Part shown: positions 25,367 through 57,337 of the stretch, in pieces
Layout of the letters: each line of letters opens with the position of its first letter
How positions within the stretch are numbered: the stretch's first letter is position 1
DNA from: a virus
Taxonomy: Duplodnaviria; Heunggongvirae; Uroviricota; Caudoviricetes
Virus record (IMG/VR): IMGVR_UViG_2925891887_000001
Length of the DNA: 64,000 nucleotides
Direction: 5' to 3' (one strand)
The notes under the pieces: generated by a model
What the model was told of the DNA's origin: nothing
What the model saw: only the letters and a program-made list of their open reading frames with translations
Databases searched by the model: none
Made by a program: the position numbers and the translations under genes

Positions 25367-25490
25367 TTAAGCCCCCCCTATGTACCTATCATTAAACCTT
25401 TACACCGCAGCCGTAGGCATTTAGGCTATATCACATATAAGAAAACAAGTTGTTTCAGACGATAATTATATACGCAAAGGGAACTCTCCA

Positions 25491-26159
25491 ATGACCAAGA
25501 TCTTTGTGGTTGGCGGCACAAAGGGCGGGCCTGGCAAATCCACCGTTGCCCAGCAAATTGCCGTTTGCCTGAAAGTCAAAAAGAAGAAGAAGGTTTATAT
25601 TACCGATATAGATATTCAGCGCACGACAACGAGCTGGTGTGAAGACCGTCGACAGAACGAAGACCTTGAGCTGATTCCTTTCGCATACGTTCAGGATGAC
25701 ATCATTAAGCACCTAAAATCGCTTCAGGGTAGAGCTGAGTTTGTAGTGGTAGATGCTGGTGGCTTCGACTCCGAAATTCAGCGACAAGCGATGCTGATGG
25801 CTGACGTTATCATTATCCCGCTGCGTCCTAAGCGTCGTGATTTGAAATCTTTACGTGACATCGATCCTATTATCGACAATGTTCGCAATGTAAACGATAA
25901 AGTGAAGGTCCGCGCGGTCATGAACCAGTGCCCGGCTTTGCCATCACAAGTGTCTCGCATTCTGGCGGCTAAAGAGATTGTTGAGACGTTTGGCATCGAG
26001 TCTGCGCCAGTCAATCTATATAACCGCAACGTCTATGATGATGCGGAAGAGTCTGGTCGTTCTATCTTTGAAATGACCGGTAGCGAGCGCGACAAAAAGG
26101 CGGAAGCCGAGTTTGAAGAATTTGTAGATTATCTGTTGAGTCTGGAGGAAGAAGAATAA
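25491..26159 (+). CDS. parA: ParA-family partition ATPase
   Basis: N-terminal deviant Walker A (GGTKGGPGKST), about 220 aa, followed by a small overlapping gene. Confidence 0.75.
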   Translation: MTKIFVVGGTKGGPGKSTVAQQIAVCLKVKKKKKVYITDIDIQRTTTSWCEDRRQNEDLELIPFAYVQDDIIKHLKSLQGRAEFVVVDAGGFDSEIQRQAMLMADVIIIPLRPKRRDLKSLRDIDPIIDNVRNVNDKVKVRAVMNQCPALPSQVSRILAAKEIVETFGIESAPVNLYNRNVYDDAEESGRSIFEMTGSERDKKAEAEFEEFVDYLLSLEEEE

Positions 26160-26518
26160 TGTCCATGAAAATGGGTGACCTAGCAAAGCGCAAAGAGCCT
26201 GATGCACCGGCTAAGAACACAACTCCTTTGCGCCAACCAGTCAGACCACAGGGACGCCCGACTCGTGGCAAAGAGAAAATTAAAAGCCGCACAATGTCAC
26301 TGGAGGACGAATACTTCGAACTGCTGGAGATGATGAAGTTCATCCCTCGCTTCGAGAAGTTCACTCGTTCTGACGTGATTCGTGCTGCTATTTTCCATCT
26401 TGCGGAGAAGACACCGCAGGAAATCGAGGACATCGTGAAACTTAACGAGGCGATCACAGCTGCCGATGTCACGATGCGTACCGATGAAATTAAACGCGAG
26501 TTGATGAAGAAAGGGTGA
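26159..26518 (+). CDS. small partition/centromere-binding protein candidate (ParG-like ribbon-helix-helix)
   Basis: 119 aa, basic N-terminus, RHH-like segment (RTMSLEDEYFELLEMM...SDVIRAAIFHL); start overlaps parA stop. Confidence 0.5.
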   Translation: MSMKMGDLAKRKEPDAPAKNTTPLRQPVRPQGRPTRGKEKIKSRTMSLEDEYFELLEMMKFIPRFEKFTRSDVIRAAIFHLAEKTPQEIEDIVKLNEAITAADVTMRTDEIKRELMKKG

Positions 26519-26569
26519 TTATATTGGGCGTTTGTTACGCCCAATATATGAGTTGAAGGATAGACACCA

Positions 26570-28276
26570 ATGGAATCGATAGAAGTATTTTTAAAAAATT
26601 TTTTGGACTCAGATCATCGGGTTGCTGTCATAAAAGGAAATTGGGGAGTAGGTAAAACGCATTATTGGAATAGCTTTTATACTAAACATTCTAAAAAATT
26701 AGATTTTAATGCATATTCATATGTTTCTTTGTTTGGAATAAATTCTATTGGAGACATTAAAAAAGCTCTTTATCATTGTGCCACACCAATTAATGAAAAG
26801 AAATATAAAGAACTGATTTTATCTGAAACGGATCGAACTATGATTCGTTATAGAAATGGGTTTTGGGGATGGTTGAAATACAACTCCTTGTCAAAATTTA
26901 TAATACATTTTGGAAAGAACGATTTTTTTGGGTTCAAAACTGATAATCTGCTGTCATCTCTTGAGTATAAATTTGTTAATAATTATTTGGTTTGCATTGA
27001 TGATATTGAACGAAAAGGTAGTGCGCTAGAAATTAAAGAGATTATGGGGGTAATTGATGAGTTGGCAAGAAGAAAAAATTGCAAGGTTGTTCTAATATTA
27101 AATGAAGATAACTTACATGAAGAAACTGCACAACAACAGTTTTTAGAGTATAGAGAAAAAATAATTGATGTGGAAATAAAATACGATCCCACGCCTGAGA
27201 AAAACTTAAGAAAAGTTTTTTATGAGACTGACCCTGATTTTCTTTTGTTAAAAAACCTAGCAAATGATTTAAACATCAAAAACATTAGAATATTAAATAA
27301 AATAAAATCATCTCTAGTTATATTTAGAGATGTGCTAAAGTTAGCAGAGGATAAGGTTAGAGAAAGTTTTATTAATAGATTGGTCTTATTTTCAGTGGTT
27401 TACTATTTTGGTGTTCCTAGCGTTGATTATGCTTCATTTAAGGAGTCAATCAAAAATATACATGCATTCGACTATATGTTAGATGATAAAGATGAAAAGG
27501 AAGAAGTTAACTCTGTATATTCATTTGTTAATAGCCTTGATGTTATTTATGAACGAGCAGAAAGTGCTTTCGATGATGATATAGATTTTTACCTTAAGAA
27601 CGGTTATGTTTCTTCTGAAAGCAATATTCTAAATATAATAAAAGAAAAAAATGAACAATATAGAGATAATAGGGTTTTATGTGAGGTTTATAAAATTTGG
27701 GATGTTTTTAGAAACTCTTTTAAAGATAATGAATCAGAGTTTATTTTTCAAATTGAGCGCGTAATTAACGATAGTCTGTTGCGTATACCAATTGGACAGT
27801 TCGTAGGTTTAATAAATGTCCTAATTAAATTGGATAGAGATTGTAATAATATTATAGAGGCATATGCAGATGCTTTTGTTAATAAAGACAATGCGTATGC
27901 TACATTTAATTCTTTGCGAGTAGAGATCTTCGGAAATGAAGAATTAGGTTTCAGAATTGAAAAAAAATTGAAAGATAGAAATCCAGATGACTATAACTTA
28001 GATAAAATTATAAAAAAAATAGCTGGTGGAAGATTTAACCATAGTGATGTGAATATTCTTAACAGTTTTTCTAAAGATGATTACGTAAACTGGATATTAT
28101 CCTGTGATCAGGATGCTTTGAATTTAGTAGAAGAGACTATGCTCAAGTTCAAGGGTATGCAACACCCGACAGACGAACAGAAGAGCATCACTGATAAAGC
28201 AATAGAAGCTTTGGAGGAAGTTGCTTCAAAATCAACACTTAATAAGCTGCGTGTTAATAAAATACTCAATCATTAA
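26570..28276 (+). CDS. KAP-family-like P-loop NTPase, strongly AT-rich cargo gene
   Basis: Walker A in KAP style (GNWGVGKTHYW), Walker B (LVCIDDIER); codon usage and base composition differ sharply from neighbours. Confidence 0.6.
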   Translation: MESIEVFLKNFLDSDHRVAVIKGNWGVGKTHYWNSFYTKHSKKLDFNAYSYVSLFGINSIGDIKKALYHCATPINEKKYKELILSETDRTMIRYRNGFWGWLKYNSLSKFIIHFGKNDFFGFKTDNLLSSLEYKFVNNYLVCIDDIERKGSALEIKEIMGVIDELARRKNCKVVLILNEDNLHEETAQQQFLEYREKIIDVEIKYDPTPEKNLRKVFYETDPDFLLLKNLANDLNIKNIRILNKIKSSLVIFRDVLKLAEDKVRESFINRLVLFSVVYYFGVPSVDYASFKESIKNIHAFDYMLDDKDEKEEVNSVYSFVNSLDVIYERAESAFDDDIDFYLKNGYVSSESNILNIIKEKNEQYRDNRVLCEVYKIWDVFRNSFKDNESEFIFQIERVINDSLLRIPIGQFVGLINVLIKLDRDCNNIIEAYADAFVNKDNAYATFNSLRVEIFGNEELGFRIEKKLKDRNPDDYNLDKIIKKIAGGRFNHSDVNILNSFSKDDYVNWILSCDQDALNLVEETMLKFKGMQHPTDEQKSITDKAIEALEEVASKSTLNKLRVNKILNH

Positions 28277-28448
28277 TAGATTATGACCTGCTTCCGTATG
28301 TATTTAATAAGTTACTTATTATTTGTATATACAGAAGCAGGTCTTTTAAAGACGCCCACCAGAACAAGTCCCTTCCGTTTCCACTTCCAAAAACTGCCAC
28401 CAGTCGCTATCATCCGCTCATTGTGATAAGTAAGTAACTACCTACCAG

Positions 28449-29198
28449 GTGAGCCACATGAGCCAAATCTTTTTCGATACCATCGACAACGACCAGTACG
28501 ACTTCATGACAGAGTGGAATACCGCTGTTATGGACAAGTGGGTTGCTGAAAACATTGGTTTGTCGCGCTGCAAAGACGAGGCTGAACTGTTTGAGACGAA
28601 GTGGTTTGATTACCGCGATATGCATCCTCTCATGGCCACCTGTCTGTTTACGGAGGCATACAAACGTCAGTACTCAAATATCATGCTGACGCACGGTCGT
28701 GAACACTTTGAAACAGCTCCGTTCACCACCGGGTTAAAACGCTTGCCTTATCAGGAGTTGTCGACTGCTAATAAAACGTCGCTATGGAAAGCACGCCAGT
28801 TTGCGGATCGCTATTGCTGCTCATACGACTACTTTATCTCCACTGTTCTTTCCGCAGCTGCACGACGTCTGTGGGACAAGCTGCCTCGCCCACAGCATTT
28901 GTGGCAGCCAGAACTGATTGAGATATTTGAAGAGAAATTAGCCAGACGCGCAACAACCCGTCTGGATGACTCTCTGGTTAGCTTTAAGCATATGGGAGAC
29001 ATGCAGTTCAACCCGATTCAGGAAAGCTATTTTGAGTGGATTCTGGAGCGTTTGCGCACCATCCCTCGCAGTAAGCGCATACGCGCAATTTTCTCCGCTA
29101 TCTGGCTAATGGAAATCGTTCCAGAGCGCCTTATTTCCGCCCACTTTCCAGAAGAACTGGAAGAAGCACGGCGGTTTATTGATCCCCTATCTAATTAA
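28449..29198 (+). CDS. hypothetical protein (upstream of replicative helicase)
   Basis: 249-aa ORF; GATAAGTAAGTA motif upstream. Confidence 0.5.
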   Translation: MSHMSQIFFDTIDNDQYDFMTEWNTAVMDKWVAENIGLSRCKDEAELFETKWFDYRDMHPLMATCLFTEAYKRQYSNIMLTHGREHFETAPFTTGLKRLPYQELSTANKTSLWKARQFADRYCCSYDYFISTVLSAAARRLWDKLPRPQHLWQPELIEIFEEKLARRATTRLDDSLVSFKHMGDMQFNPIQESYFEWILERLRTIPRSKRIRAIFSAIWLMEIVPERLISAHFPEELEEARRFIDPLSN

Positions 29199-29219
29199 CT
29201 AATACTAGAAAACAATTTG

Positions 29220-29232
29220 TTTAAAAAACAAA
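29220..29232. promoter_or_regulatory. AAACAATTTGTTT palindrome upstream of the helicase gene
   Basis: 13-bp perfect palindrome; near-identical copies at 48876-48888, 57309-57321, 42839-42852 and 25442-25455, each 20-45 bp upstream of a start codon. Confidence 0.5.
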
Positions 29233-29241
29233 GGAAAGCAC

Positions 29242-30582
29242 ATGACCGAACTTTGCCATACAGGACGCGGGCTGTCCGAAGAGTTTGATGAAGATTTCCA
29301 GAACAGACTGACGGCATATTTTTGTCGTGATCACGAGTTTCTTACTCGTGCGGGAGATCTGGTTGTGCCTAGCCAATTTGCCAATGCGGCCAATGCCATA
29401 TTGGTTAATATGGTTTCGGGCTATTACCGTATGTACAAGAGCGCGCCCTCTTCATCTGCAATTCTGGATATGCTTAAGCGTGCGAAACGCGATAAGACTA
29501 TCCGTGAGGAACTATTCGCCGATGTTGTTGTTGCGTTTAAGCGCATCCTTGCAGAAAAATTGTCCGATACCTCGTACATGGTTGACCAGGTATCAACCTT
29601 CGCAAAAAGCGTAGCGTTTGATGATGCTCTGATTAAGGCTGCTGAACTGAAAGAGAAGGGCGACTTTCAGGGGGCGATGGCAATCATGGCCAAGGTTCAG
29701 CAGATTGGATCGAACGAAGCGACCGGAATCTATGACTACTACACCTCCGCAAGTGAGCGATTGAAAGCGCGTGAATATGAGGCTTCAGAGGAGTATGTAC
29801 CAAACAGTATTACAACTGGACTCCCTCTTCTCGATAGGTTGCTGTACCAAAAAGGCTGGGCAAAGCGCGAAATGGTGCTCTTCATGGGGTTCGCTAAATC
29901 CGGTAAATCGACCGCAATGGGTGAGTTTTCCATAAACGCAACGCTTGCTGGCTACAATGTTCTGTATCTCTCGCTGGAGGTTCACACCAACATTTTGTCC
30001 GACCGTTTTGATGCAAGATTGTCGGAGACGGAAATGTCCAAGTTGGTGGAACGGCGCGATGAAGTTCATCGTAAGTTGGCAGAGTTGGGAGCCTCTAAGG
30101 GGATTGGTAGTTTGTGGGTTGTTGAGCGTCCGTCAGGAAGTATGTCACCGGCAGATCTGGACCGTATGCTTAACAGCATGAAAGCCAACGGCATGGTGCC
30201 TGACATGGTTGTTGTCGACTACGCAGATTTGATGCGTGCCAGTTATGACCTTCGTGATGATCGCGCCAACATTCGTAGTATCTACACCGATTTACGTGCT
30301 CTTTATGACAAGCATAACGTTGCTGGGATCACGGCATCGCAGACAAACCGTGAAGGTGGCGCGTCAGAAGTTGCCACAATGATGCACGCTGCCGACAACA
30401 TCGAAAAAGTACGTATTGCTGACCTGGTAATAACGATCAACAAAACCGAAGAAGAAGAAGCGAAAGGAGAGGCTCGTCTCTACTTTGCCGGTTCACGTAA
30501 CCAGCAGGGAGGGATCAGCATTCGCGTTAAACAAAACCTCGAACAAATGCGCTTCATTGAGCGAATCTTAGACGTTACCTAA
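29242..30582 (+). CDS. DnaB-like replicative helicase
   Basis: Walker A (GFAKSGKST), DnaB-type Walker B (VVVDYADLM), about 446 aa. Confidence 0.75.
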   Translation: MTELCHTGRGLSEEFDEDFQNRLTAYFCRDHEFLTRAGDLVVPSQFANAANAILVNMVSGYYRMYKSAPSSSAILDMLKRAKRDKTIREELFADVVVAFKRILAEKLSDTSYMVDQVSTFAKSVAFDDALIKAAELKEKGDFQGAMAIMAKVQQIGSNEATGIYDYYTSASERLKAREYEASEEYVPNSITTGLPLLDRLLYQKGWAKREMVLFMGFAKSGKSTAMGEFSINATLAGYNVLYLSLEVHTNILSDRFDARLSETEMSKLVERRDEVHRKLAELGASKGIGSLWVVERPSGSMSPADLDRMLNSMKANGMVPDMVVVDYADLMRASYDLRDDRANIRSIYTDLRALYDKHNVAGITASQTNREGGASEVATMMHAADNIEKVRIADLVITINKTEEEEAKGEARLYFAGSRNQQGGISIRVKQNLEQMRFIERILDVT

Positions 30583-30591
30583 AAAATAAGC

Positions 30592-31845
30592 GTGGAGAAC
30601 ACCTCCACGCTTGATTCATTGGTGAAACAACTTTTCTTTTGCCAAACCACAAAAGAAAAACACATGAGCCTTTATGTTATATCAACATTTAGGTTGGTCA
30701 CAATATTGCCTGTTAAAAGTGGAATTATCGTGAGCGAGCTGAAAGAGCTAATTGCCGAATTAGATTTTGAACAATGGTTGGATACTGAAGGTATCGTTTA
30801 TCGACGTGGAGGCGTGAGTGCTCGCGGTCGTGAAGTGAATATCAAAGAGTGTCCGGTATGCGGCAGCTCCAACTGGAAGGTATATTTCAATCTGACCAGT
30901 GGCGTCGGCAAATGCTTCGCTGGTGATCATCCCGAAGAGATTCAGTTCAATAAGCTGGTCTTCCTCAAGCACTACAGCGGTAAATCACGACGACAGTTCG
31001 AGGAATATGTGCAGAACGCTCTTCTTTCCCAGGGGTGGACACCAAAGAAAGAAGAGCTAGTGCTTGCAAGCACAGTCGAGTTAGAGGGGCCAGTTGCACT
31101 CCCTCGTCATTACGAGCTTCCTATAGATGGCCGTCTTCCAGACTATCTGGTTGAACGAAACATATCACCTGAAATGGCAAAGTATTTTGACCTACGATAC
31201 TGCGTCGAAGGCAAGCACGCTTATGTAGATCCGTATACAGATCAGGTAAAAGGGCAGATATTCGATATGCGAATACTGATACCGGTTTACGATCTGGATG
31301 GGGTAATGAAGACATTTCAGGGACGAGACATTACCGGTACAGCAGAACGCCGCTACCTCTTTCCTATGCAGCTTCCAGCTTCAGGTAAATTTCTCTACAA
31401 CGGCCATAATGCAGTCGGCAAACAGACTGTAGTTGTCTGTGAGGGTTCGTTCGATGTTATGGGGGTCAAACGAGCTATTTTCGACGAAGAAACATTACGT
31501 GATTACGTGGAGCCAATAGGAACGTTCGGGATGCATCTATCTGGCAACACCACTCAGGATGCAGAAGATCAGTTGGGCGCGTTCCTGACGCTCAAGGCGC
31601 GTGGATTACGTAATGTGATCATGATGTGGGATAGTGAAAAGCAAGCTATACGAAACACGATGGCCGCAGCCAGGCGACTGACCAGTATTGGTCTTAATGT
31701 CAAAGTTGCGTGTTTGGGCGAGGAAGGACTCGACCCCGGCGATGCGACACCGGGGCAGATTATCAAAGCCTACTATTGCGCAAAACCTTATTCACGACAG
31801 CTTGAACTTTTAAGCAAGGTAAAAGGTATAGCAGCATTAGTTTGA
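30592..31845 (+). CDS. DNA primase (zinc ribbon plus TOPRIM)
   Basis: CPVCGSSNW...CFAGDH zinc-binding motif and TOPRIM-like acidic motifs (VVVCEGSFD); start uncertain. Confidence 0.65.
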   Translation: MENTSTLDSLVKQLFFCQTTKEKHMSLYVISTFRLVTILPVKSGIIVSELKELIAELDFEQWLDTEGIVYRRGGVSARGREVNIKECPVCGSSNWKVYFNLTSGVGKCFAGDHPEEIQFNKLVFLKHYSGKSRRQFEEYVQNALLSQGWTPKKEELVLASTVELEGPVALPRHYELPIDGRLPDYLVERNISPEMAKYFDLRYCVEGKHAYVDPYTDQVKGQIFDMRILIPVYDLDGVMKTFQGRDITGTAERRYLFPMQLPASGKFLYNGHNAVGKQTVVVCEGSFDVMGVKRAIFDEETLRDYVEPIGTFGMHLSGNTTQDAEDQLGAFLTLKARGLRNVIMMWDSEKQAIRNTMAAARRLTSIGLNVKVACLGEEGLDPGDATPGQIIKAYYCAKPYSRQLELLSKVKGIAALV

Positions 31846-33731: not shown

Positions 33732-33856
33732 AGGTGAATGCTGGGCTGAGGATATGCCCGGCATCTTAGTATAAAGAACTATTGCACCTAAAATGATAAG
33801 TAGATACATACTTAAGTTTTTGTAAGAATACTTTCATCCGTTAGCTAGGAGTTGGT

Positions 33857-36496: not shown

Positions 36497-36672
36497 TGCT
36501 CGGCTGGATGATTGCATTTTTAGCAGTTGGTTTTTTCATAGGTATTGTGGTGATGTCCAGTTGCATCAATGACTACATTAAAAGCGGTGTTATAGAAAGA
36601 CGCGGTCGTATTTATCGCATTGTAGAAATAACCAACACCCTGAAGGAGATTAAGGATGATCGTATTAAGTAA
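36493..36672 (+). CDS. small membrane protein (59 aa)
   Basis: Not in the ORF track (below 60 aa); ATG overlaps ligase stop; one TM helix; paralogous to 36868..37020. Confidence 0.4.
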   Translation: MMLGWMIAFLAVGFFIGIVVMSSCINDYIKSGVIERRGRIYRIVEITNTLKEIKDDRIK

Positions 36673-36871
36673 ACGGGAGAAGGAAACGCTTCATGAAATC
36701 AGTAAGTGGCCGGAGTTCCCTGAGTACTGGAAGCCTAAAACGCGAGCTAAGTTAGAGCGTTTAGGGTTGGTTGCAAACGTTTCTGAAACGTGGTGTTCGG
36801 CCAACTACCAGTTAACTGATAAAGGGAAAGTATTGCTACAGCAATTAGTAGAATCAGGAGTGTTAAAATGA
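36656..36871 (+). CDS. hypothetical small protein
   Basis: 71-aa ORF with AAGGAG RBS. Confidence 0.5.
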   Translation: MIVLSKREKETLHEISKWPEFPEYWKPKTRAKLERLGLVANVSETWCSANYQLTDKGKVLLQQLVESGVLK

Positions 36872-38332: not shown

Positions 38333-38652
38333 ACACAACAGGTAAGAGCATTGGGCGAATCGGCGATACTGACCCACAAGGCCGTAAATCGATAGAGTCA
38401 GACCAGTGCTCTTACCGTTGTGAGGAAGTGCAGCTCTTTGAAGCAACCAGAAGATAAGCATCTGGCTTCACAACACAACGATAATATCATTACGGTTAAT
38501 CGTCGTTCATGTGCACAATGACTGGTCGAAAGGTAGTGATCTTACCGTTGTGATGAATGCACAGGCTGATGTGCCGCAACTACAGTAGTGCGCGCTTTGC
38601 GGGGCTTGCTACAACCCTGTGTCGGAGTTCAGCACCGACCATCACAATAGCT

Positions 38653-38739
38653 GGAGAGTAGGGAGCATGGTGCTCAAGCGGTCTTGAAAACCGTCCCATT
38701 GTGCAAACGATGATGGTTCGATTCCATTACTCTCCGCCA
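38653..38739 (+). tRNA. tRNA-Ser (anticodon TGA), long variable arm
   Basis: Acceptor GGAGAGT/ACTCTCC, anticodon loop CTTGAAA, T-loop GGTTCGATTCC, encoded CCA. Confidence 0.7.
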
Positions 38740-40632: not shown

Positions 40633-40824
40633 GCCGTTTTTATTCCCACCAAACTCACTCCCGTTTCCCTTAAAATTCAAAAAACAACGTCAAAATGATT
40701 CCATACCTACTATGTATGGAATCATTACTGAAAATGAGTTACTTTTACTCTTGATCCTATAAGAATCTATGCCTAATATACTGTTTACTTATACAGTAAA
40801 TCGGCGTAACTCGGTGATTGTCAT

Positions 40825-42309: not shown

Positions 42310-42559
42310 TGTTACAACCTTTGCGCGTTCAATTCTCTCTGGTAAGTGCTTACCGATATTACATCAAAGGTTAGGGTTGTAAAGCTATTATCATTTTTTC
42401 GATAGGCACTTAAAAGACCGGTTAAAGGCCATTGCACGGAGAAAAATTAGCCCAAAACAGGTAAGAAAATTAACTTGCATATGATATGAATGTATTCAGT
42501 ATTGATATAAATTTTAGTAGTATTCCTTACCATAGTATAAGTTAGAATGGATTGATTGA

Positions 42560-42772: not shown

Positions 42773-42870
42773 CCCCTCTTCTCCCTGCGCGAATGGCTTA
42801 GTTCCCTGTTCGCGCAGTGCTACATTAAACACACTAGTAAATAATTTGTTTTCATAACAAAGGATTAGCC

Positions 42871-44979: not shown

Positions 44980-45074
44980 ACAAAACAGCCTTAACGATAA
45001 GTAACCACTTACGATATATAATGATATATTTATATAAGAAGTTGAACGCTCATTAGAGAACAAAGGAAAAACGC

Positions 45075-46310: not shown

Positions 46311-46490
46311 TCGTGCGTAAAGGATGTTTCGGCTCTCTTATCGCTGCTTCTGAAACTGGTAAGGCTTGTCTGGTGTGTCCAGACAAGCCCGATTGTCACC
46401 AATCAGCAAAAGAAGTTGCGATTTCGATGCATGGGAAGTTCGTAGGCTTCCCCAATGACAAAATCAAAAAAACCAGAAAGGTAAAAACAC

Positions 46491-48854
46491 ATGAAGGCAC
46501 TGATGGTTCGAACTGACTTCTCACTTGGGGAGTCGGCTCTAAAAGCAGAAAACGCGGTGAAGATTGCCAGAGAAGCTGGCTACACCGCTGTAATTTCAGC
46601 AGATAGCATGAATATTGCGAGCGTTATTCCACTACAACGTGCCGCTGGTGACGACATGGCGGTTATTTGTGGTGTGAAACTAAACATTGTTGATGATCCC
46701 ACATACGAGCACCGGGCTAAACTTGCTAAAGAATCTATGAGATGTATGGAATCATTAGAGCGAGGACGTAACTACTCGTTTACCGCTCTAATTAAAAATG
46801 AGAAAGGATATCGCGACATCTGCGAACTAATGACGGCGGCCAACACACGAGAACAGTTCTACTTTGTACCGCGTCTCTCGCTCGAACAGTTGGTTTCTAC
46901 ATATGCCAAAGGCAACATCATCCTGCTTACTTCCGACATCGGTAGCGTGTTCCAACGCAACGATTTTGCAAAAATCATAAGCACACTGATTACAGCGGGT
47001 GGAAAAGACAACTTCTATAGTGTGGTTTATCCGCACCCTACCCCATTCTACGACCAGATTAACGTCCGGGCGATGAAAGTCGCCAGCGCATTGAAAATAG
47101 AGCCAGTGGCGTTCTATCCCGCTTATTACGAATCGATCGACGATGCAGACATTAAAGACATTGCGCACATGGTTACGAACAACATCAAAATCGACCAGCC
47201 GCATCGTCTGCGTATCCCCCACCAGCGAGATAACGCCGTCAATGGTCGCCGCCATCTCCTTGAGGCGCTTAAAGCCTTCTCCGTTCGCATGGATGTGCCG
47301 GTAACAGCTGCAATGGCCTCAACAACGCAGGATACCATTATCGATGCCTGCACATGGCGCTGGCATGAATTGCCGCCAGCACTGCCAAAGATGGCAGACG
47401 ACGAGCCTGCAACGCTGATGAAACTGGCTGTTGCAGGGCTGCGTAAACGTCTTACCACAAAAGAGTTTGGCTACACACCACCTGCTTCTGAGAACAGGGT
47501 TTATGTTGAGCGGCTAAAGTACGAAATGGACACGCTGACTCGCCTGGGATTCTGTGGTTACTTCCTGATGGTGCGCGATCTGATGAATCATAGTCGTGAA
47601 ACTGGCATTCCCGTTGGGCCTGGTCGTGGTTCCTCTGCCGGTTCTCTGGTGGCGTGGTGCATAGGCATAACCAACGTCGACCCAATCCGTCACGGTCTTC
47701 TGTTTGAGCGTTTCATCAACCCTGAGCGTCTCGACTTGCCGGATGCGGACTTGGACTTCAGCCAGGCACGTCGCCATGAGGTGATCGAGTATCTGAATGA
47801 ACGCTACGGCGAAGATTACGTTGCAGGCATTCCGAACTTCACCTACCTGGGCGCAGCCTCTGCACTACGTGATACCGCTCGTATTTATGGTGTGGAGTCC
47901 GCAGATATGGCGGTATCAAAAGAGCTGAAGAACGTCGAGGATGATAGCCTTCCATTGGAGGAGCTGCGCGAACAACTGGCAAGTCTCGACAAATACGCAA
48001 CAAAATATCCTGATGCATTCAATGCAGCCTGCAAGTTACAAAGCCTTATGCGTGGCTTTGGTAGACATGCGGCAGGGATGATCGTAGCAGGTGTTCCTCT
48101 GACAGAACGTACACCGGTTGAACGCCGTGGTGACGCGCGTTGTATCGCATTTGACAAGCGTTACTGCGAGGCTATGGGCCTAATTAAGCTGGACGTGCTT
48201 GGCCTGGCAACTCTCGATTTGCTCGATAGTGCAAAACGCTACATAAAAGAGAACACAGGTGAAGATATCAATCTTGATGCCATTTCTCTTGAAGATCGCA
48301 AGGTGCTGGATGGTTTTGCTGCAGGGTATACACAGGGCGTATTCCAGCTTGAATCAGGCCCAATGCGCAAGCTGCTTAAAGATTTAGGTGGTGGAATTGA
48401 GCCAATGAGCTTTAAAACGGTCGTCGCTACAACTGCGCTCTTCCGACCTGGCCCGATTCAATCCGGCATGTTGGACGATTATGTGTCCGTGGCCAAAGGC
48501 TTCATGGCCCCACATTCCTTACACCCAATGCTGGACGACATCTCTCGCGACACAAACGGAGTTCTGATTTATCAGGAACAGATCATGGCTGCTACGCGAA
48601 TCTTGGCGGGGTTCTCAATGGCGGAAGCAGACTCGGTCAGGAAAGCGATCGGGAAAAAAGATATGGAGAAAATGAAATCCATTGGCGGCGACTTCATTAA
48701 GCGAGCGGAGGAAGGCTGGGTGACAGTGTCACTGGATGATGGTTCTACGAGAAAAATCCATAAAGCAGCACGCCTACTTTGTGCTGATGGTGAGCGTCGC
48801 ACTTATGCCGAAGCAATGGCAATAAATGCCGACATAACGAGCTTCGATATTTGA
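46491..48854 (+). CDS. DNA polymerase III alpha-type (DnaE-like) replicative polymerase, N-terminal part
   Basis: Polymerase core block GRGSSAGSLVAWCIGITNVDPIRHGLLFERFINPER; ORF ends in non-conserved sequence just before the finger-domain motif. Confidence 0.75.
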   Translation: MKALMVRTDFSLGESALKAENAVKIAREAGYTAVISADSMNIASVIPLQRAAGDDMAVICGVKLNIVDDPTYEHRAKLAKESMRCMESLERGRNYSFTALIKNEKGYRDICELMTAANTREQFYFVPRLSLEQLVSTYAKGNIILLTSDIGSVFQRNDFAKIISTLITAGGKDNFYSVVYPHPTPFYDQINVRAMKVASALKIEPVAFYPAYYESIDDADIKDIAHMVTNNIKIDQPHRLRIPHQRDNAVNGRRHLLEALKAFSVRMDVPVTAAMASTTQDTIIDACTWRWHELPPALPKMADDEPATLMKLAVAGLRKRLTTKEFGYTPPASENRVYVERLKYEMDTLTRLGFCGYFLMVRDLMNHSRETGIPVGPGRGSSAGSLVAWCIGITNVDPIRHGLLFERFINPERLDLPDADLDFSQARRHEVIEYLNERYGEDYVAGIPNFTYLGAASALRDTARIYGVESADMAVSKELKNVEDDSLPLEELREQLASLDKYATKYPDAFNAACKLQSLMRGFGRHAAGMIVAGVPLTERTPVERRGDARCIAFDKRYCEAMGLIKLDVLGLATLDLLDSAKRYIKENTGEDINLDAISLEDRKVLDGFAAGYTQGVFQLESGPMRKLLKDLGGGIEPMSFKTVVATTALFRPGPIQSGMLDDYVSVAKGFMAPHSLHPMLDDISRDTNGVLIYQEQIMAATRILAGFSMAEADSVRKAIGKKDMEKMKSIGGDFIKRAEEGWVTVSLDDGSTRKIHKAARLLCADGERRTYAEAMAINADITSFDI

Positions 48855-48902
48855 GAATTAATTTATAAGATAAGAAAACAATTTGTTTAGTGAGTCTTAG
48901 AA

Positions 48903-49637
48903 ATGCCGAGTACGAAGTACAAAATCACAGAAGAATGGTTACGTCAGCGTTACATGGTTGACCTGATGAGAAAAGAAGACATTGCCGCCGAAGCTGGTTG
49001 CAGCAAGGCAAATATTGACCGCTTATTAGCCAAATGGGGGATCAGGCGCGGAAGCGCGCGGATCTCCGCTACCCCAGCCTGGAATCGTGGCAAAAACAAA
49101 AATAATGACGAACGTATGAAGCGTCTCTCCGAAGCCCGGACTGGCACTGGCAACCCTATGTATGGGAAAACCTCGTGGAATGCCGGTCTGCGTGCTGATA
49201 TCGATGAGCGAGTGGCCACCGTTTCGAAAAAGCTAACCGGCAGAACAATCCGCGCGGAGACGAAGGAAAAGCTGGCGGCTGCCAAACGCGGAAAGATCGG
49301 AGAAGAAGCGAACAACTACAAAGGTGGCATCATCGTAAAAACCAACGGCTACATGATGCAGCTGGTTGGTAACAATGGCGTTTCGCAATACGAATACGTT
49401 CATCGATTGATAGCGAAAGAACGTCTCGGTCGGGAGCTACGTGACGATGAACATGTCCACCATATTAACCGCGATACGATAGATAACGCCCCTGGGAATC
49501 TTGTAGCACTTCCAGAAGACGCCCACATTCGCCTGCATAGTGAAATGCGTGAAGAGATATGGAGCTGGGAGCGCCAACGGAACTGGCTGGCCTCCAATGG
49601 GTATGAGTTCGTGAAGATTGATGAGGTGACTGCATGA
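48903..49637 (+). CDS. HNH homing endonuclease inserted within the split DnaE gene
   Basis: HNH motif (HHINRDTIDNAPGNLVALPEDAHIRLH) and repeated basic NUMOD-like motifs (WNRGKNK, MYGKTSWNAGL). Confidence 0.75.
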   Translation: MPSTKYKITEEWLRQRYMVDLMRKEDIAAEAGCSKANIDRLLAKWGIRRGSARISATPAWNRGKNKNNDERMKRLSEARTGTGNPMYGKTSWNAGLRADIDERVATVSKKLTGRTIRAETKEKLAAAKRGKIGEEANNYKGGIIVKTNGYMMQLVGNNGVSQYEYVHRLIAKERLGRELRDDEHVHHINRDTIDNAPGNLVALPEDAHIRLHSEMREEIWSWERQRNWLASNGYEFVKIDEVTA

Positions 49638-50803
49638 AAATTACCGGTGTTGTCGAAGAGAGCAATGGCCTGACGCACGAACGAGCCGAAGAAATCTGGA
49701 ATATGTTTGAGAAATCCGGCGCGTATGCCTTCAACAAATCACACTCTGTTGCTTACTCCTTAATCAGTTATCAATCTATGTGGTTGAAAACTCATTATCC
49801 CGCAGAGTTTTTCGCTGCTGCTCTCACTATTCTTGGCGAAGATAAACACCAGGGGCTGGTTAAAGATGCGCTGACCTATGGCATTCGCGTATTGCCACCA
49901 GACGTTAACGTGTCATCTAACCGAATCGAGATCCGCACGCTTGAAGATGGCAGCCAGGTGCTGTATGCGCCCTTCTCTGCTGTGAAGGGGTGTTCTGAGA
50001 ATGGCTGCCAAGCCATCATGAGAGCGCGAGAAAAAGTTGGCGGCAAATTCGAGTCACTGGCGCAATTCGAAGAAGCTGTCGAGAAACGTGCCTGTAATAG
50101 TCGAGTGCGCGAATCGCTGCAAAAAGTAGGGGCGTTTGCATCCATCGAGCCAGGCAGTCTGCCAGCAACTGATCCAGAGCGCCTACGCGACCAGGCTGAA
50201 TTGATGGGAAACCTTGTCATAGACGCAGTTAAAGCCTCACGTCCGTTTGAGATGAACCCCAAACGTTCGGCTGAAATTAACGTACTCATGACGCGGATGG
50301 CGGCTGAAATGGGCTTAGGTGATGAACTAATCCGCCCCAGCATTGGTATTAAGCCGAAAATCATGATCATTCTGGACAATGCGAACGGCAATGATGCTCG
50401 AACCGGTTACTTTATGGAGAACGGATACGACGACTTTAAGGCCAAGCTATTGACGGCTGGAGATTTACGCATGGGCGATCTCTATGTCACAGGTGTTTGC
50501 AAGAAGGTTAAAGACAAAGAAAAAGACTACACCAAAGACGAGATCGGCCAGTTCACCGACTTTATGCGTGAAGAGATCAATCTGGTGCGTCCGACCTATG
50601 TGCTGACGTGTGGCAGCCGGGCAACTTCATTGTTTAACAACAAAAACAAGCCATCCGATTTGGTCGGCAGGAAGGAGTATCTTCCAGACCTTGACGTTAC
50701 TGTCTTTTACGGGTTTAACCCCAACATTCTTTACTTCAGACCTGAAGAGGGAGAACGACTAGAAGCGATATTAGCCGACGTAGCAGAAACTATTAAGACG
50801 TGA
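49634..50803 (+). CDS. DnaE-like polymerase, C-terminal part
   Basis: Begins with the conserved finger motif region (GAYAFNKSHSVAYSLISYQSMWLKTHYPAEF); own ATG overlapping the HNH stop. Confidence 0.75.
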   Translation: MKITGVVEESNGLTHERAEEIWNMFEKSGAYAFNKSHSVAYSLISYQSMWLKTHYPAEFFAAALTILGEDKHQGLVKDALTYGIRVLPPDVNVSSNRIEIRTLEDGSQVLYAPFSAVKGCSENGCQAIMRAREKVGGKFESLAQFEEAVEKRACNSRVRESLQKVGAFASIEPGSLPATDPERLRDQAELMGNLVIDAVKASRPFEMNPKRSAEINVLMTRMAAEMGLGDELIRPSIGIKPKIMIILDNANGNDARTGYFMENGYDDFKAKLLTAGDLRMGDLYVTGVCKKVKDKEKDYTKDEIGQFTDFMREEINLVRPTYVLTCGSRATSLFNNKNKPSDLVGRKEYLPDLDVTVFYGFNPNILYFRPEEGERLEAILADVAETIKT

Positions 50804-51361: not shown

Positions 51362-51478
51362 TTTTTGATAGATAATAAGTAAGTACTGATCTATCATTTA
51401 ACAGCTCGAAAGAGCCACGAATGAACGAAAGCCCAACGCGCATAGCGCCATCGGCCAAATCACAACAAGGAGAAACAC

Positions 51479-52523: not shown

Positions 52524-52552
52524 GTAAGGCGTCTACGGACGCCTTACTTTTT
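52524..52552 (+). terminator. Rho-independent terminator
   Basis: GTAAGGCGTC-TACG-GACGCCTTAC hairpin followed by TTTTT. Confidence 0.7.
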
Positions 52553-52567
52553 GGAAGGAATGTACCG

Positions 52568-53778: not shown

Positions 53779-53780
53779 TC

Positions 53781-56120
53781 ATGGCAAAAGGAAAATCCGC
53801 ACTGGCACTTGCTCTGAAAAAGAAAATCGGTAGCAACGACGAAATTCAGAAAGTAACTCATTGGATTGATACAGGCTTTCCACCGTTAAACAAAGCTATT
53901 TCTGGTCGTTACGATGGCGGCTTCCCATGTGGTCGTATCGTCGAAGTATTCGGTCCTCCAAGTGCAGGGAAATGTGTTACCGCAGACACCATGCTGCTGA
54001 CGGAGCGTGGAATGGTAACAGTGAAAGAGTTGTTTGAGATTGAAGGGTACAAAGCGACATGCACTACTCGCGATGTAGAGCATAACGTTGGACTCATCAA
54101 TGAAAATGGCGTGATAGAGAAGACCTCACACCTGACATGGAACAACCGTCGCAAATTCAAGCGTATTAAGCTGGCATCAGGCGGTTATATCGAGGCTACG
54201 TTCCGTCACCCAATCCGTGTGGTTGACGACTTAGGTAATGTCGTCTGGCGACATGCTGAAAAAATCAGTGTAGGCGACACGATTCCTTCAATGGTTGGCA
54301 CACATCAATTCGGCGATCAGCACCTGGATGCCAATATCGCAAAACTGATGGGCTATTTAATTGCTGACGGATACGTCGCCTCTGAAAATTCAGTGAATTT
54401 TTCTAACACAGATCCTTTCATCAAGGATGAGTACTACCGCCTCATTTCGCTGGTATCAGACAAGATGCCAGTTACGAGAAAACATAACGGCTCGGAAGAC
54501 CATGTGCTGTTTAGCAAAGAGGTGCGTTCGCTGCTTTTTAAAGAATATGGTCTGGAGTATGAGAAAGCTGCTGGCAAGCAGGTTCCGTTGAGTGTGCGTC
54601 GCGCCAATAGCGAGGCTCAAATTGCATTCCTTCGCGGCTACTTTGAGCTGGAATGCCACGTCAATGATGGTCGCTGCATTGAGGTTGTGAGCGCGAGTGG
54701 GCTGCTGCTACAGCAAATTCGCCTCATGCTCCTGAATCTGGGGATTACGTCAACTATCTCTGAAAAACACGTCGCGGGTTATGAAAATACATATTACCGG
54801 CTGTCATTCAGTGGCTCTAATTACGACCTTTTTCTGTCAACGATTGGTTTCGAATCTCCGGCACGTTTATCAGTGGCAACCAAACGGGACATTGGTTTTG
54901 ACCGCACTTACTCAGGCTATGTTCCGCACATCAGCGGCTTAGTGAAATCACTCTACGAGTCGCTCACCAAGACCACCCGTGAAGACTACGCTCTGGTAGA
55001 CCACGTTATTGGCCGCGGCGATCGTGTCGGAATAGACAAACTGCGAGAAATCTATGTCTCCTTCATTGGCAGAAAGAATCGTTTTAACGAGCATCTGTTT
55101 GCACAACTGGCAGCGGTAATTGGCTCTAACTTGTTCTACGACGAAGTCGTGGCTATTGAGGAAGGTGAAGCACCAACGTTCGACGTAGCGATGCCGGAAA
55201 CACACTCTTTCTGGTCTAACGGGATTATCAGCCACAACACATTCCTTGCAACAGCAGCGATGATCTCCGCTCAAAAACAAGATGGTCTGGCGGTATTCCT
55301 CGATCATGAAAACAGTTTTGACGTTGGCCTGGCTGTAGCCAATGGCCTGAACGCAGATGAGGATGACGGTCAGTGGGTCTACAAACAGCCGGATACCTTC
55401 GAAGACTCCGTAGAGCTGATCGGCACAATCCTCAAGCTGGTGCGCGACGAAGAGCTTATTCCGGAAACAGCCCCTATCTGCATCGTAGCCGACTCTCTGG
55501 CGTCGATGGTTCCGAACTCGAAGGCTGAGAAGTTCGACAAGATGGCAGAAGGCACTGCGAAAGACAAAGATCAGCTGAACATGAACGACAACACGGCGCT
55601 GGCGCGCGCGACAAGTGCGAACTTCCCTACTCTGGCGCTTTGGGCGCGTAAGTACAACGCGTGCATCATCTTCTTGAACCAGGTGCGTACCAAAATTGGT
55701 GTGATGTTTGGCGATCCGACTACGTCTCCGGGTGGCGACTCTCCGAAGTTCTACGCTTCTGTACGTATCCGTCTTGGTGCATCGGTGATGAAGGATGGTA
55801 AAGAGAAGATCGGCCAGGACGTAGGCGCAGAATGCATCAAAAACAAAGTTGCACCACCGTATGGCAAATGCACCTGGAAATTCTACTTCGATCCTACTCG
55901 TGGCCTCGACGTTATCGAATCGCTCGTCGAGTACATGCTGGAAGAAGGATACCTGCCAAAGAACGCCAGCGGGCGAGTTGAAATTGGTGACAAGAAATAC
56001 ACCAAATCGCAGATCGTCGAGATGTATCGGGAGAAGCCACTGGCTGAAATCATTGCGGCTTTGCAGGCAATCGACGACCGAAGAGCAAAAGACAACCCCA
56101 CCGAGTCAGTAGAAGAGTAA
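53781..56120 (+). CDS. recA: RecA recombinase precursor containing an intein
   Basis: Exteins (64 + 293 aa) align to bacterial RecA (GRIVEVFGPPSAGK | TFLATAA..., IIFLNQVRTKIGVMFGDPTTSPGG, KFYASVRIRLG); intein residues begin with Cys and end HN before Thr. Confidence 0.85.
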   Translation: MAKGKSALALALKKKIGSNDEIQKVTHWIDTGFPPLNKAISGRYDGGFPCGRIVEVFGPPSAGKCVTADTMLLTERGMVTVKELFEIEGYKATCTTRDVEHNVGLINENGVIEKTSHLTWNNRRKFKRIKLASGGYIEATFRHPIRVVDDLGNVVWRHAEKISVGDTIPSMVGTHQFGDQHLDANIAKLMGYLIADGYVASENSVNFSNTDPFIKDEYYRLISLVSDKMPVTRKHNGSEDHVLFSKEVRSLLFKEYGLEYEKAAGKQVPLSVRRANSEAQIAFLRGYFELECHVNDGRCIEVVSASGLLLQQIRLMLLNLGITSTISEKHVAGYENTYYRLSFSGSNYDLFLSTIGFESPARLSVATKRDIGFDRTYSGYVPHISGLVKSLYESLTKTTREDYALVDHVIGRGDRVGIDKLREIYVSFIGRKNRFNEHLFAQLAAVIGSNLFYDEVVAIEEGEAPTFDVAMPETHSFWSNGIISHNTFLATAAMISAQKQDGLAVFLDHENSFDVGLAVANGLNADEDDGQWVYKQPDTFEDSVELIGTILKLVRDEELIPETAPICIVADSLASMVPNSKAEKFDKMAEGTAKDKDQLNMNDNTALARATSANFPTLALWARKYNACIIFLNQVRTKIGVMFGDPTTSPGGDSPKFYASVRIRLGASVMKDGKEKIGQDVGAECIKNKVAPPYGKCTWKFYFDPTRGLDVIESLVEYMLEEGYLPKNASGRVEIGDKKYTKSQIVEMYREKPLAEIIAALQAIDDRRAKDNPTESVEE
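53973..55238 (+). mobile_element. intein (422 aa) with LAGLIDADG homing endonuclease domain, inserted in the RecA Walker A motif between K and T
   Basis: In-frame element CVTADTMLL...IISHN followed by +1 Thr; LAGLIDADG-like motifs LMGYLIADGYV and FLRGYFELECHV. Confidence 0.8.
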
Positions 56121-56124
56121 ACAC

Positions 56125-56148
56125 AAGGCGTCCACAGGACGCCTTTTT
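56125..56148 (+). terminator. Rho-independent terminator
   Basis: AAGGCGTCC-ACA-GGACGCCTT hairpin with TTTTT. Confidence 0.7.
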
Positions 56149-56211
56149 ATCTCTTGAAAATATATAAGTACTTACTTATTATTTTCGCATAACAACCACA
56201 TAGGAAAACAC

Positions 56212-56412
56212 ATGATCAAAATCTATCTATTGGCAGTAGCCACAGGCGTTTCAGTGGCTCTCATCTACGGTTTACTGGTTCCGTCGCTGATTTCTACCAA
56301 GAGTGATTTAGCCGTCATGTTTGGAGTTATCGTTGGTTTTGGTGCTCCTGTAATCGGTCTTATTGCTGGTCGTAAGTTTATCAACTCATTAATCAAAGCA
56401 AAGGGGAAATAA
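56212..56412 (+). CDS. small two-helix membrane protein (partner of the SPFH protein)
   Basis: 66 aa, two hydrophobic helices, 4 nt upstream of the SPFH gene. Confidence 0.5.
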   Translation: MIKIYLLAVATGVSVALIYGLLVPSLISTKSDLAVMFGVIVGFGAPVIGLIAGRKFINSLIKAKGK

Positions 56413-56415
56413 GTA

Positions 56416-57246
56416 ATGAAGAAAGGTTTACTTGCAGTTGCTCTGGCGGCTATTTGCACAATGGGTCTTACTGGCTGTGATCGCGTGGAGCCTGGATACG
56501 TTGGCATCAAAGTAAACAAATTAGGTGAAGACAAAGGGATCGGTGAAGTGGTTGGCGTTGGTCGCCAATGGACAGGTCTTAACACCGAACTTTACGTATT
56601 CCCGACCTTCAAACAAATGAAGACCTACGACGAACCGTTCACATTCCAGATGAGTGACGGTACTGCTATTGGTCACAAAATTGGCGTTGCGTATCTGGTT
56701 AATCGTGACAAGGTAACGACGGTGTTCCAGACCTATCGCAAAGGCGTAGACGATATCACCGAATCAGATCTGCGTCAGAAAATTGCCGACTCTCTAAACC
56801 GTTTGGCCAGCCGTATGACCACTGACTCATTTATCGACGGTGGTAAGGCGCAATTGCTGGACAACGCACTGAAAGATATTCAGAAAGAGATGTCTCCGGT
56901 TGGTATTGAGGTACTGAGCCTGTCATGGGTTGGAAAGCCTGATTACCCAAAAACCGTCATTGAATCTATCAACGCCAAAGTAACGGCTAACCAGCGTACT
57001 CTGCAACGTCAGCAGGAAGTTGAACAACGTAAAGCTGAGGCGAATATGCTACGTGAACAGGCTAATGGTGAAGCTGATGCTATCCGTGCTCGTGCGCAAG
57101 CAGAAGCAGACGCCATTCGTCTGCGCGGTGAAGCTCTGCGTCAAAACCCGAACGTTATGGAACTGGAAGCCATCAATAAATGGAATGGCCAGTTACCGCA
57201 GTACATGACTCAAGGGGCTAACACTCCTTTCATTACAGTGAAATAA
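56416..57246 (+). CDS. SPFH/Band-7 (stomatin/HflC-like) domain lipoprotein
   Basis: Lipobox LTGC; SPFH-like core followed by Ala/Glu/Arg-rich helical segment (EADAIRARAQAEADAIRLRGEA). Confidence 0.6.
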   Translation: MKKGLLAVALAAICTMGLTGCDRVEPGYVGIKVNKLGEDKGIGEVVGVGRQWTGLNTELYVFPTFKQMKTYDEPFTFQMSDGTAIGHKIGVAYLVNRDKVTTVFQTYRKGVDDITESDLRQKIADSLNRLASRMTTDSFIDGGKAQLLDNALKDIQKEMSPVGIEVLSLSWVGKPDYPKTVIESINAKVTANQRTLQRQQEVEQRKAEANMLREQANGEADAIRARAQAEADAIRLRGEALRQNPNVMELEAINKWNGQLPQYMTQGANTPFITVK

Positions 57247-57262
57247 CTCCCCTAAAAAGTTC

Positions 57263-57288
57263 AGGCGTCCAGTTGGACGCCTTTTTTA
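57263..57288 (+). terminator. Rho-independent terminator
   Basis: AGGCGTCC-AGTT-GGACGCCT hairpin followed by TTTTTTAT. Confidence 0.7.
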
Positions 57289-57337
57289 TCGCAATTATCT
57301 TATTAAGAAAATAATTTGTTTAAAAGGATAAGAAAAC

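Follow-up and report, generated by a model that had tools for sequence, protein, structure and literature searches.

The palindrome AAACAA-N-TTGTTT, five copies of which lie in a 64,000-nucleotide stretch of tailed-phage DNA (IMG/VR record IMGVR_UViG_2925891887_000001; hereafter, the window), is probably the operator of a dispersed regulon, controlled by an element-encoded repressor at sigma-70 promoters. This reading is carried by what was observed directly: the motif, how far it is enriched and conserved, where it stands with respect to promoter-like hexamers, and a lysogen in which the genes behind it are silent. We refer to the copies as class B sites, to set them apart from a second recurrent palindrome, GTAAGTA-N-TACTTAC (the GTAAGTA class). 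Megablast placed the window among the SSU5/pHCM2-like (SSU5/Cyrano-like) phage-plasmids, its closest annotated relative being Escherichia phage Cyrano, the plasmid of E. coli LF82 (aligned parts about 97% identical), while identity was about 80% with Salmonella phage SSU5 and about 76 to 78%, over parts, with Klebsiella phages such as pJN2-26. Its gene order runs from tail genes to lysis, partition, replication, and recombination genes and then to a plasmid replication gene, and the intergenic share is 8%. In PLSDB, about 800 to 900 plasmids carry the ParA partner or the helicase discussed below. In the mechanism that we propose, class B copies would lie on or just downstream of predicted start sites at promoters that host sigma-70 polymerase should recognize unaided, and an element-encoded, two-fold symmetric protein would bind the palindrome and block either polymerase binding or promoter escape. 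Such binding would keep the genes off in the plasmid-prophage, and its loss would switch the whole gene set on together.

All five class B sites are intergenic, and each lies upstream of a gene. An earlier, sequence-only reading of the window had assigned the palindromes to parA, a helicase gene, a vWA gene, an HNH gene, and the gene at 57338, and the domain identities of all five products agree with it (ParA; DnaB_C helicase; CobT with a VWA domain; HNH_3 plus NUMOD3 endonuclease; DUF7238). At the parA promoter, the palindrome occupies 25443-25455 (AAACAAGTTGTTT) within the plus-strand block 25439..25456 (AAGA-AAACAAGTTGTTT-C); at the promoter of the dnaB-like helicase gene, it occupies 29210-29222 (AAACAATTTGTTT) within 29206..29223 (TAGA-AAACAATTTGTTT-A; plus strand). 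The site of the cobT/vWA gene (42839-42851, AAATAATTTGTTT; block 42835..42852, TAGT-AAATAATTTGTTT-T) is ambiguous in orientation, as its flanks have drifted and it scores 23.1 bits on the minus strand versus 16.3 bits on the plus strand with a position weight matrix (PWM); its orthologs at SSU5 42729 and pJN2-26 91040 are plus-oriented. The site before the HNH homing-endonuclease gene (48876-48888, AAACAATTTGTTT; block 48872..48889, AAGA-AAACAATTTGTTT-A; plus strand) shares the top PWM score within the window with the helicase site. Finally, the site of the DUF7238 gene at 57338 (57309-57321, AAATAATTTGTTT; block 57305..57322, AAGA-AAATAATTTGTTT-A; plus strand) is preceded by a terminator hairpin with a T-run (57264-57281) and has orthologs at Cyrano 58595, where the palindrome is perfect, and SSU5 56848. 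From the end of the palindrome to the ATG, the distances are 35 (parA), 19 (helicase), 19 (cobT), 14 (HNH), and 16 nt (DUF7238 gene). With regard to the coordinates given earlier, the perfect copy at 48876-48888 stood as described and the one placed at 29220-29232 is real, its true position (29210-29222) being 10 nt away; the variants listed at 25442-25455, 42839-42852, and 57309-57321 are present as 25443-25455, 42839-42851, and 57309-57321. The HNH gene stands free (48903-49637) between the two open reading frames (ORFs) of a split DNA polymerase III alpha gene (46491-48854 and 49634-50803), overlaps the second of them by 4 nt, and brings its own perfect class B site. Of about 900 related PLSDB plasmids, only 24 to 25 have this insertion, and the phage-collection records all lack it.

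The number of copies is far above chance. Compared with 200 first-order Markov simulations, there were five matches to at least 11 of the 12 defined positions (0.43 expected) and three matches to all 12 (0.015 expected), while at the looser level of 10 out of 12 the count was near expectation (10 versus 5.9). Furthermore, a PWM built from other genomes only gave the five window sites 23 to 28 bits, whereas its best hit in simulated sequence averaged 12 bits and never exceeded 20.7. The palindrome is thus not chance-frequent and is strictly intergenic in placement, which settles the comparison with random positions that had been proposed together with the original description. A PWM scan of the window revealed no sixth credible site, and two extra copies of the half-site only (AGAAAACAA), both inside genes, were set aside as chance-like.

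The same short sequence is found at many unlinked promoters of the relatives. For comparison, we used SSU5, Cyrano, the Klebsiella phage pJN2-26, and IMG/VR loci; matches to at least 11 of 12 positions numbered 20 in SSU5, 18 in Cyrano, and 17 in pJN2-26 (one of the latter inside a coding region), i.e. about 15 to 20 sites per genome in SSU5-like phage-plasmids. Pooling 55 nonredundant sites gave the 17-nt motif AGA-AAACAA-N-TTGTTT-A, with a two-fold symmetric core, a free central base, and the AGA extension conserved on one flank only, in 44 to 51 of the 55 sites. In a blind census of the 10-mers of Cyrano, AAGAAAACAA from the palindrome ranked first, AAAACACATG from a ribosome-binding leader treated below was joint first, and a GTAAGTA-class word was third, so that the palindrome, the leader, and the GTAAGTA class are the three most repeated words of this genome. 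In the relatives, class B sites are densest among the small genes at 80 to 98 kb, and further copies stand before nrdB, a tciA-like gene, and the small terminase gene. At the last of these, a hairpin rich in GC and then a run of T come after the site or sites (AGAGCGC...GCGCTCT GTGTGTTTT; Cyrano 57-134, SSU5 56-133, pJN2-26 38628-38682), and the late operon may be read by antitermination from a repressible promoter. Among the exact-pattern matches listed for IMG/VR, 80 loci were analyzed, and 44 of them proved to be SSU5-like contigs; the other 36 loci among the matches listed comprised some variable regions of SSU5-like contigs, the rest being mostly lone chance matches in AT-rich or coding DNA. 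Literature searches yielded no earlier description of the class B motif, and the paper on LF82 and Cyrano was the only one that they brought up.

Conservation of the operator extends beyond that of its flanks, as purifying selection would have it, both among promoter haplotypes and between copies of the HNH insertion. Promoter regions were compared at 74 parA loci, which collapsed to 25 haplotypes, and at 82 helicase loci, which collapsed to 34. At parA, the block made of AAGA and the palindrome showed a single change in the 25 haplotypes, and this fell on the free central base; at the helicase gene, AGA and the left half-site did not vary at all, and three haplotypes had one or two base changes in the right half. 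The central base, the spacer between the hexamers, and the stretch from the palindrome to the Shine-Dalgarno sequence vary freely. A Klebsiella lineage (L209), whose ParA partner is only 48% identical, keeps the site at both the parA and helicase promoters amid diverged DNA, and the site of the HNH gene is identical in Cronobacter and Enterobacter insertion copies that are 91 to 95% identical overall. Class B sites also stand at orthologous promoters in the Salmonella and Klebsiella relatives.

In its lineage range, class B is confined to Escherichia, Salmonella, Klebsiella, Enterobacter, and Cronobacter, and its regulon is absent from the Moellerella and Acinetobacter relatives examined. The GTAAGTA class, or its analog TAGTAAGCGCTTACTA, is present in Moellerella, Acinetobacter, and all class B lineages; since the range of class B is the narrower one, class B is the younger of the two motif systems. 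A 22-bit match resembling class B (GAGAAATCAACTTGTTTAA), located on the minus strand inside the tape-measure gene of Moellerella pW18-2-b (L212, 3910-3928), may be due to chance. Every lineage examined, SSU5, Moellerella, and Acinetobacter (there as TAGTAAGCGCTTACTA) included, has kept the GTAAGTA class, which looks like a core promoter or regulatory signal of ancient origin shared by the whole group. It outnumbers class B and occurs in or beside the -10 regions of tail, lysis, and replication genes; its window copies lie at 2695-2712, 16906-16920, 22431, 28430-28445, 33797-33813, 37319, 42342-42355, 44998-45011, 51376-51390, 56165-56178, and 61621-61640. The earlier proposal that the palindrome forms a second recurrent regulatory class apart from this family was borne out by its enrichment, intergenic placement, orthologous conservation, and position at predicted -10 and -35 elements.

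The position of class B sites relative to promoter-like hexamers is what suggests an operator. The predicted sigma-70 promoter of the operon formed by parA and its parG-like neighbor (25399..25427, plus strand; -35 TTTACA, 17-nt spacer, -10 TAGGCT) has both hexamers invariant in the haplotype set and reads TTGTCA-17-TAGGCT in L209, where the spacer is otherwise diverged, and the palindrome would occupy about +9 to +21 of it. The predicted helicase promoter (29179..29206, plus strand) consists of TTGATC, a 16-nt spacer, and AATACT; in relatives, TTGAT is invariant and the -10 is TAGTAT or TACGAT, so that a TAnnnT-like hexamer is kept. The helicase operator begins on the last base of this predicted -10 and hence would cover the start site. 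Before cobT/vWA, an extended -10 (TGcTACATT, 42818..42826, plus strand) is placed 12 nt upstream of the palindrome, with the orthologous versions TGaTAAATT in SSU5 and TGtTATTTT in pJN2-26. The HNH gene has ambiguous -10 candidates (TATAAG or TAAGAT) just upstream of its site, and the DUF7238 gene has a possible -10, AATTAT, at 57293-57298. Among the 55 pooled sites, 18 follow a TG-extended -10, against 3.2 expected from shuffles (maximum of 8 in 200), and the distance from the end of the hexamer to the palindrome peaks at 14 to 15 nt (18 cases), which would center the palindrome near +14. Overall, the sites appear to span about -4 to +21 of the predicted promoters. We infer that the hexamers are real promoters, which should be usable by host sigma-70 polymerase unaided. 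A by-eye resemblance to promoters of T7/T3/SP6-like single-subunit polymerases (AATTAAC...ACTA, ATTTAGG) was also considered and rejected, as these elements show no constant spacing between sites.

A second, inverted copy accompanies the main one at several early promoters of the relatives, the two starts being exactly 51 bp apart and the inverted copy lying upstream (outside the window: SSU5 88319/88370, SSU5 93662/93713, and Cyrano 93114/93165), and at SSU5 85602 the partner 51 bp downstream is a left half-site only. In the 51-bp pairs, the conserved AGA of each copy faces the promoter. Mirrored pairs at a constant spacing of about five helical turns fit a protein that would bind DNA cooperatively, and not an element acting at the level of the transcript.

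Expression in the lysogen was taken from the per-gene values for Cyrano in the RNA-seq data of strain LF82 (PMC9928086, S1 table). Cyrano genes behind class B sites read 5.7 to 25, compared with a background median of 9.8 (terS 7.1, helicase 21, cobT 7.8, CYRAN_58 5.7, nrdB 12.9, early genes 6.3 to 25), and remain low under each of the five conditions, with the sole exception of the par operon (50 to 89; PMC9928086). Silence despite near-consensus extended -10 boxes supports active repression, without being specific to it.

Which protein would bind class B is a separate question, and here the leading candidate, a tentative one, is the ParA partner, a 119-aa, probably ribbon-helix-helix (RHH) protein encoded at 26159..26518 on the plus strand, in the same operon as the parA site. 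Its sequence has a basic tail followed by IKSRTMSLEDEY...FTRSDVIRAAI, an RHH pattern in which IKSRTMS and FTRSDVIRAAI are invariant in homologs down to 48% identity, and it gives a weak, sub-threshold NCBIfam match to the archaeal aCcr1 regulator family (E 2e-4). A homolog is expressed in the Cyrano lysogen (PMC9928086), and the ParA partner is the only lysogen-expressed candidate with a class B site in its own operon. Pfam and PHROGs assigned no function to it, Foldseek found no match in the PDB, and single-sequence and profile searches of the PDB gave no real match. In every homolog found, neither the motif nor the putative DNA-reading strand shows any variation, which leaves no room for covariation between operator and binder. 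The Moellerella relative, from which the dispersed regulon is absent, has a partner that is 45% identical (with KSRTVS), and its sole intergenic match resembling class B (AAGAAAACAATATATTT, 15.9 bits) is 113 nt upstream of parA (P of about 0.001-0.002 within 300 bp). The Acinetobacter relative, whose par system is unrelated and which lacks class B sites, is therefore uninformative on the binder. A slightly bolder and correspondingly more doubtful idea is that the ParA partner reads the palindrome and that the 15 to 20 copies serve as partition sites and operators at once.

The other lysogen-expressed candidates are weaker. An XRE-type repressor (41923-42309, minus strand) ranks next and is somewhat less probable than the ParA partner. 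Its control region carries a palindrome of the other class (GTAAGT-N-CTTACC) in both the window and pJN2-26, and SSU5, with its 20 class B sites, has no XRE repressor gene of the Cyrano type. The promoter of CYRAN_117, which lies outside the window and encodes a 92-aa RHH-like protein, also carries the other motif class. Two small winged-helix proteins (36656-36871 and the CYRAN_123 homolog) likewise count as candidates. What is left of the probability falls to some other protein. Apart from the question of the binder, the XRE gene has a noteworthy neighborhood. A near-consensus promoter (TTGATC, 17 nt, TAATAT) followed by a perfect LexA box (TACTGTTTACTTATACAGTA; window 40751-40798) drives a tyrosine-recombinase gene (40825-41928, plus strand) that is convergent with the XRE gene and overlaps its end. 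Cyrano is inducible by ciprofloxacin (PMC9928086), and SOS-induced antisense transcription of the XRE gene could explain this. Near this promoter, an inverted repeat (AATGATTCCATAC...GTATGGAATCATT, window about 40695-40733) contains words that occur five times in the Cyrano genome.

Several points weigh against a repressor operator and against the ParA partner as its ligand: (i) nearly all lytic genes are silent in the lysogen, hence silence is not motif-specific; (ii) class B also stands before the lysogen-expressed parA and the small terminase gene of the relatives, which is odd for a simple early-gene operator; (iii) a generic -35/-10 scan calls no promoter at the window's own class B sites, and both the promoter assignment and the sign of regulation are what we infer; (iv) that AGA is conserved on one side, and that copies in 5' leaders are always sense-oriented, could likewise be explained by a role close to the promoter or at the RNA level; and (v) the RHH assignment of the ParA partner comes from a sequence pattern and a sub-threshold match, and an AlphaFold2 monomer model, built on an alignment of 11 sequences, is poor (mean predicted local distance difference test score [pLDDT] of 63.5).

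Other explanations compete with the operator. In the first, which we hold to be rather unlikely, the motif would belong to the promoter and be recognized by an activator, or a sigma-like factor, that the element encodes and that switches on a temporal gene class. Its orientation to the gene is constant with the conserved AGA always toward the promoter, silence in the lysogen would be expected if the activator were missing, the generic scan finds no canonical hexamer pairs at the window sites, and the sole obvious expression signal of the mobile HNH gene is a perfect copy. However, the gap to the -10-like hexamer varies from 0 to 1 nt (helicase) to 11 to 16 nt elsewhere, good TGn-extended -10 boxes, which should need no activator, stand upstream of the motif, and the motif is a two-fold palindrome with inverted copies 51 bp upstream, while action from about +14 is rare among activators.

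We also consider it improbable that the sites are primarily dispersed, centromere-like partition sites for the ParA/ParG-like system, with any effect on transcription being secondary. One of the five window sites is placed as in a type Ib par system, i.e. that at 25443 upstream of parA, with the small partner gene (26159-26518) next, and a search of 23900-29300 found no array of short direct or inverted repeats at the par operon, so that no conventional array beside parA-parG could act as the centromere. The invariance of the partner's putative DNA-reading strand wherever the motif is present and the single intergenic match upstream of the Moellerella parA point in the same direction. Nevertheless, a centromere needs neither a fixed distance to -10 elements and start codons nor promoter-flanking pairs at 51 bp; RHH partition proteins such as ParG and omega usually bind arrays of short repeats and not single 13-bp palindromes, and the RHH fold of the partner is itself only putative.

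A third explanation, which strikes us as quite doubtful, is that the motif acts in mRNA, as a leader bound by a translational repressor (an FljA homolog or a T4 RegA-like protein) or as a processing site. All gene-proximal copies are in the sense orientation, 4 to 35 nt before the start codon and often abutting the Shine-Dalgarno sequence. In addition, every class B-positive genome has a full-length FljA homolog (PF03614, E 1e-80), the gene is absent from the Moellerella relative, itself without the regulon, and FljA is described as acting post-transcriptionally on fliC mRNA (PMC2652032, citing Bonifield and Hughes 2003 and Yamamoto and Kutsukake 2006). Against this, the leaders fold no better than shuffled sequences (z of -0.66 to +0.97) and match no Rfam family, and the variants break pairing (AAACAA/TTATTT, AAACAA/TTGGTT) with no compensatory changes seen; the leaders thus show none of the marks of a structured RNA looked for, namely a stable fold, an Rfam family, or compensatory changes. 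Moreover, the inverted copies upstream of promoters would lie outside the sense transcript, about 25 other genes have the phyletic pattern of FljA, and the FljA homolog is more simply explained as a moron acting on host flagellin. As a binder of class B, this homolog was set aside: it is co-distributed with the motif, but the Salmonella fliC leader, as far as it is given by a primer sequence in that source (PMC2652032), does not resemble it. In its own right, the full-length FljA homolog (PF03614, E 1e-80; CYRAN_114 in Cyrano, L005 40514-41035) is found in SSU5-like elements of Escherichia, Salmonella, and Klebsiella, and its C terminus gives a weak Hfq-like signal. FljA is a post-transcriptional repressor of phase-1 flagellin that acts on the flagellin mRNA (PMC2652032), and the phage-plasmid homolog may silence host flagellin.

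Lastly, the notion that the matches are chance products of A+T-rich intergenic DNA draws on the A/T-richness of the motif, the near-expected count of its looser matches, and single exact matches in unrelated AT-rich viral contigs, but it is practically negligible and was ruled out by the 10- to 200-fold excess of the two strictest match classes, PWM scores far above the null, and an operator that is near-invariant amid variable flanks across dozens of haplotypes.

Read as a repressor operator, class B has counterparts in other elements. In P1, the C1 operators are 17-bp sites scattered over the genome, with the dnaB-type helicase gene ban among the targets; their consensus, ATTGCTCTAATAAATTT, is asymmetric and bound by a monomer. 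The likeness lies in a phage-plasmid with many dispersed copies at unlinked promoters, including that of a dnaB-type helicase, where one operator means that a single protein can silence these promoters together in the plasmid state; by contrast, the class B sequence is unrelated by eye to the C1 consensus, and its core is a 13-bp two-fold palindrome. In RK2, the operator of KorB, TTTAGCSGCTAAA, is likewise a palindrome of 13 bp whose center is free, and omega of pSM19035 and ParG bind arrays of 4- to 7-bp repeats. Like the KorA/KorB and omega sites, where a partition protein doubles as a global repressor, class B is a short palindrome that recurs at numerous promoters of a plasmid backbone, that of the par operon included, but it shares no sequence similarity with them and consists of single 17-bp sites, not of repeat arrays. 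Furthermore, KorB is a ParB/KorB-type helix-turn-helix protein, whereas the ParA partner is a small RHH-like protein whose regulatory role is hypothetical. As Ravin and Lane in 1999 and Ravin et al. in 2008 are said to have found, the partition sites of N15 are scattered near phage promoters and influence phage gene expression. N15 is thus likewise a phage-plasmid with dispersed promoter-near sites; however, its sites number four and are related to F sopC, and its SopB is of type Ia, in contrast to the roughly 15 to 20 strictly promoter-proximal sites and type Ib-like ParA here. Finally, the main site, centered at about +11 to +15, and the upstream copy of the relatives at an integral number of helical turns (51 bp) recall lac O1 and auxiliary looping, but the analogy is one of geometry only, as neither a LacI-family protein nor a CG-centered operator is involved.

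The sequence-only reading had joined the palindrome with a shared ribosome-binding leader (AAAGGAAAAACAC-ATG) into one standardized expression cassette. The leader does occur at all five of the start codons named there (29242, 45075, 51479, 57819, and 61752) and additionally before 46491 and 56212; it occupies 29224..29241 before the helicase ATG (AAAAACAAAGGAAAGCAC, plus strand), with similar leaders at 45057-45074, 46473-46490, 51461-51478, 56194-56211, 57801-57818, and 61734-61751. Allowing up to three mismatches, AAAGGAAAAACACATG had six matches in comparison with 1.19 expected, a number reached in none of 100 shuffles. In five of the six, the last letters are those of a called start codon; the remaining match (30651-30666) stops at the in-frame ATG of 30664, inside the primase ORF. 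The leader consists of an AAGGA core and a 7-nt A-rich spacer ending in CAC, so that an AGGA-type core stands 6 to 9 nt before the start codons of real genes, as in a Shine-Dalgarno sequence. The cassette, however, found no support: palindrome and leader are found together at the helicase gene only, and the leader serves both motif classes, with the leader genes at 45075, 51479, 56212, and 61752 preceded by GTAAGTA-class palindromes. The labels early or middle that went with the cassette are tentative at best, with class B sites standing before parA and the small terminase gene in relatives too. The leader is therefore a strong but ordinary ribosome-binding region, separate from the palindrome. 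As for the primase ORF, it is listed from a GTG at 30592, a terminator-like hairpin is found at 30588-30612, and its in-frame ATG at 30664 has the standard leader AAAAGAAAAACAC; the true start is probably 30664.

Some further features of the window and its relatives deserve mention. The RecA/UvsX-like gene at 53781-56120 encodes 779 aa, with an intein carrying a LAGLIDADG endonuclease domain at about residues 73-486, whereas the SSU5 protein is uninterrupted (358 aa). An iteron-like repeat, (C)ACCGCTGACAGCATA, is present in at least nine copies at 58858-59436 and around 59437-60651; these repeats are located downstream of the Rep3-family initiator gene (59437-60651, minus strand), on both sides of a small ORF (59060-59299, minus strand). 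CYRAN_81 (Cyrano 78657-78791; L005 18391-18525) is a 44-codon ORF that is 98% identical between Cyrano and SSU5, far above its neighboring genes, and its translation does not look protein-like. It is highly expressed in the lysogen (117 versus 9.8; PMC9928086) and may be a small regulatory RNA.

Phage-plasmids of the SSU5/pHCM2 type are very common in clinical and animal Enterobacteriaceae, and the control of their lysogeny, maintenance, and induction is essentially uncharacterized. A dispersed operator regulon in a phage-plasmid is of a kind already familiar from P1, N15, and RK2, and class B extends that kind. Should the ParA partner indeed read the palindrome, segregation of the plasmid-prophage and closure of its lytic-cycle promoters would both depend on a single partition protein; if runaway replication titrated this protein, or if it were lost, the switch to lytic growth would be favored. 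Whichever protein binds it, an operator common to about 15 to 20 promoters would offer a handle for finding the regulator, predict which genes switch together, and provide a basis for reporters of the transition from plasmid to lytic growth.

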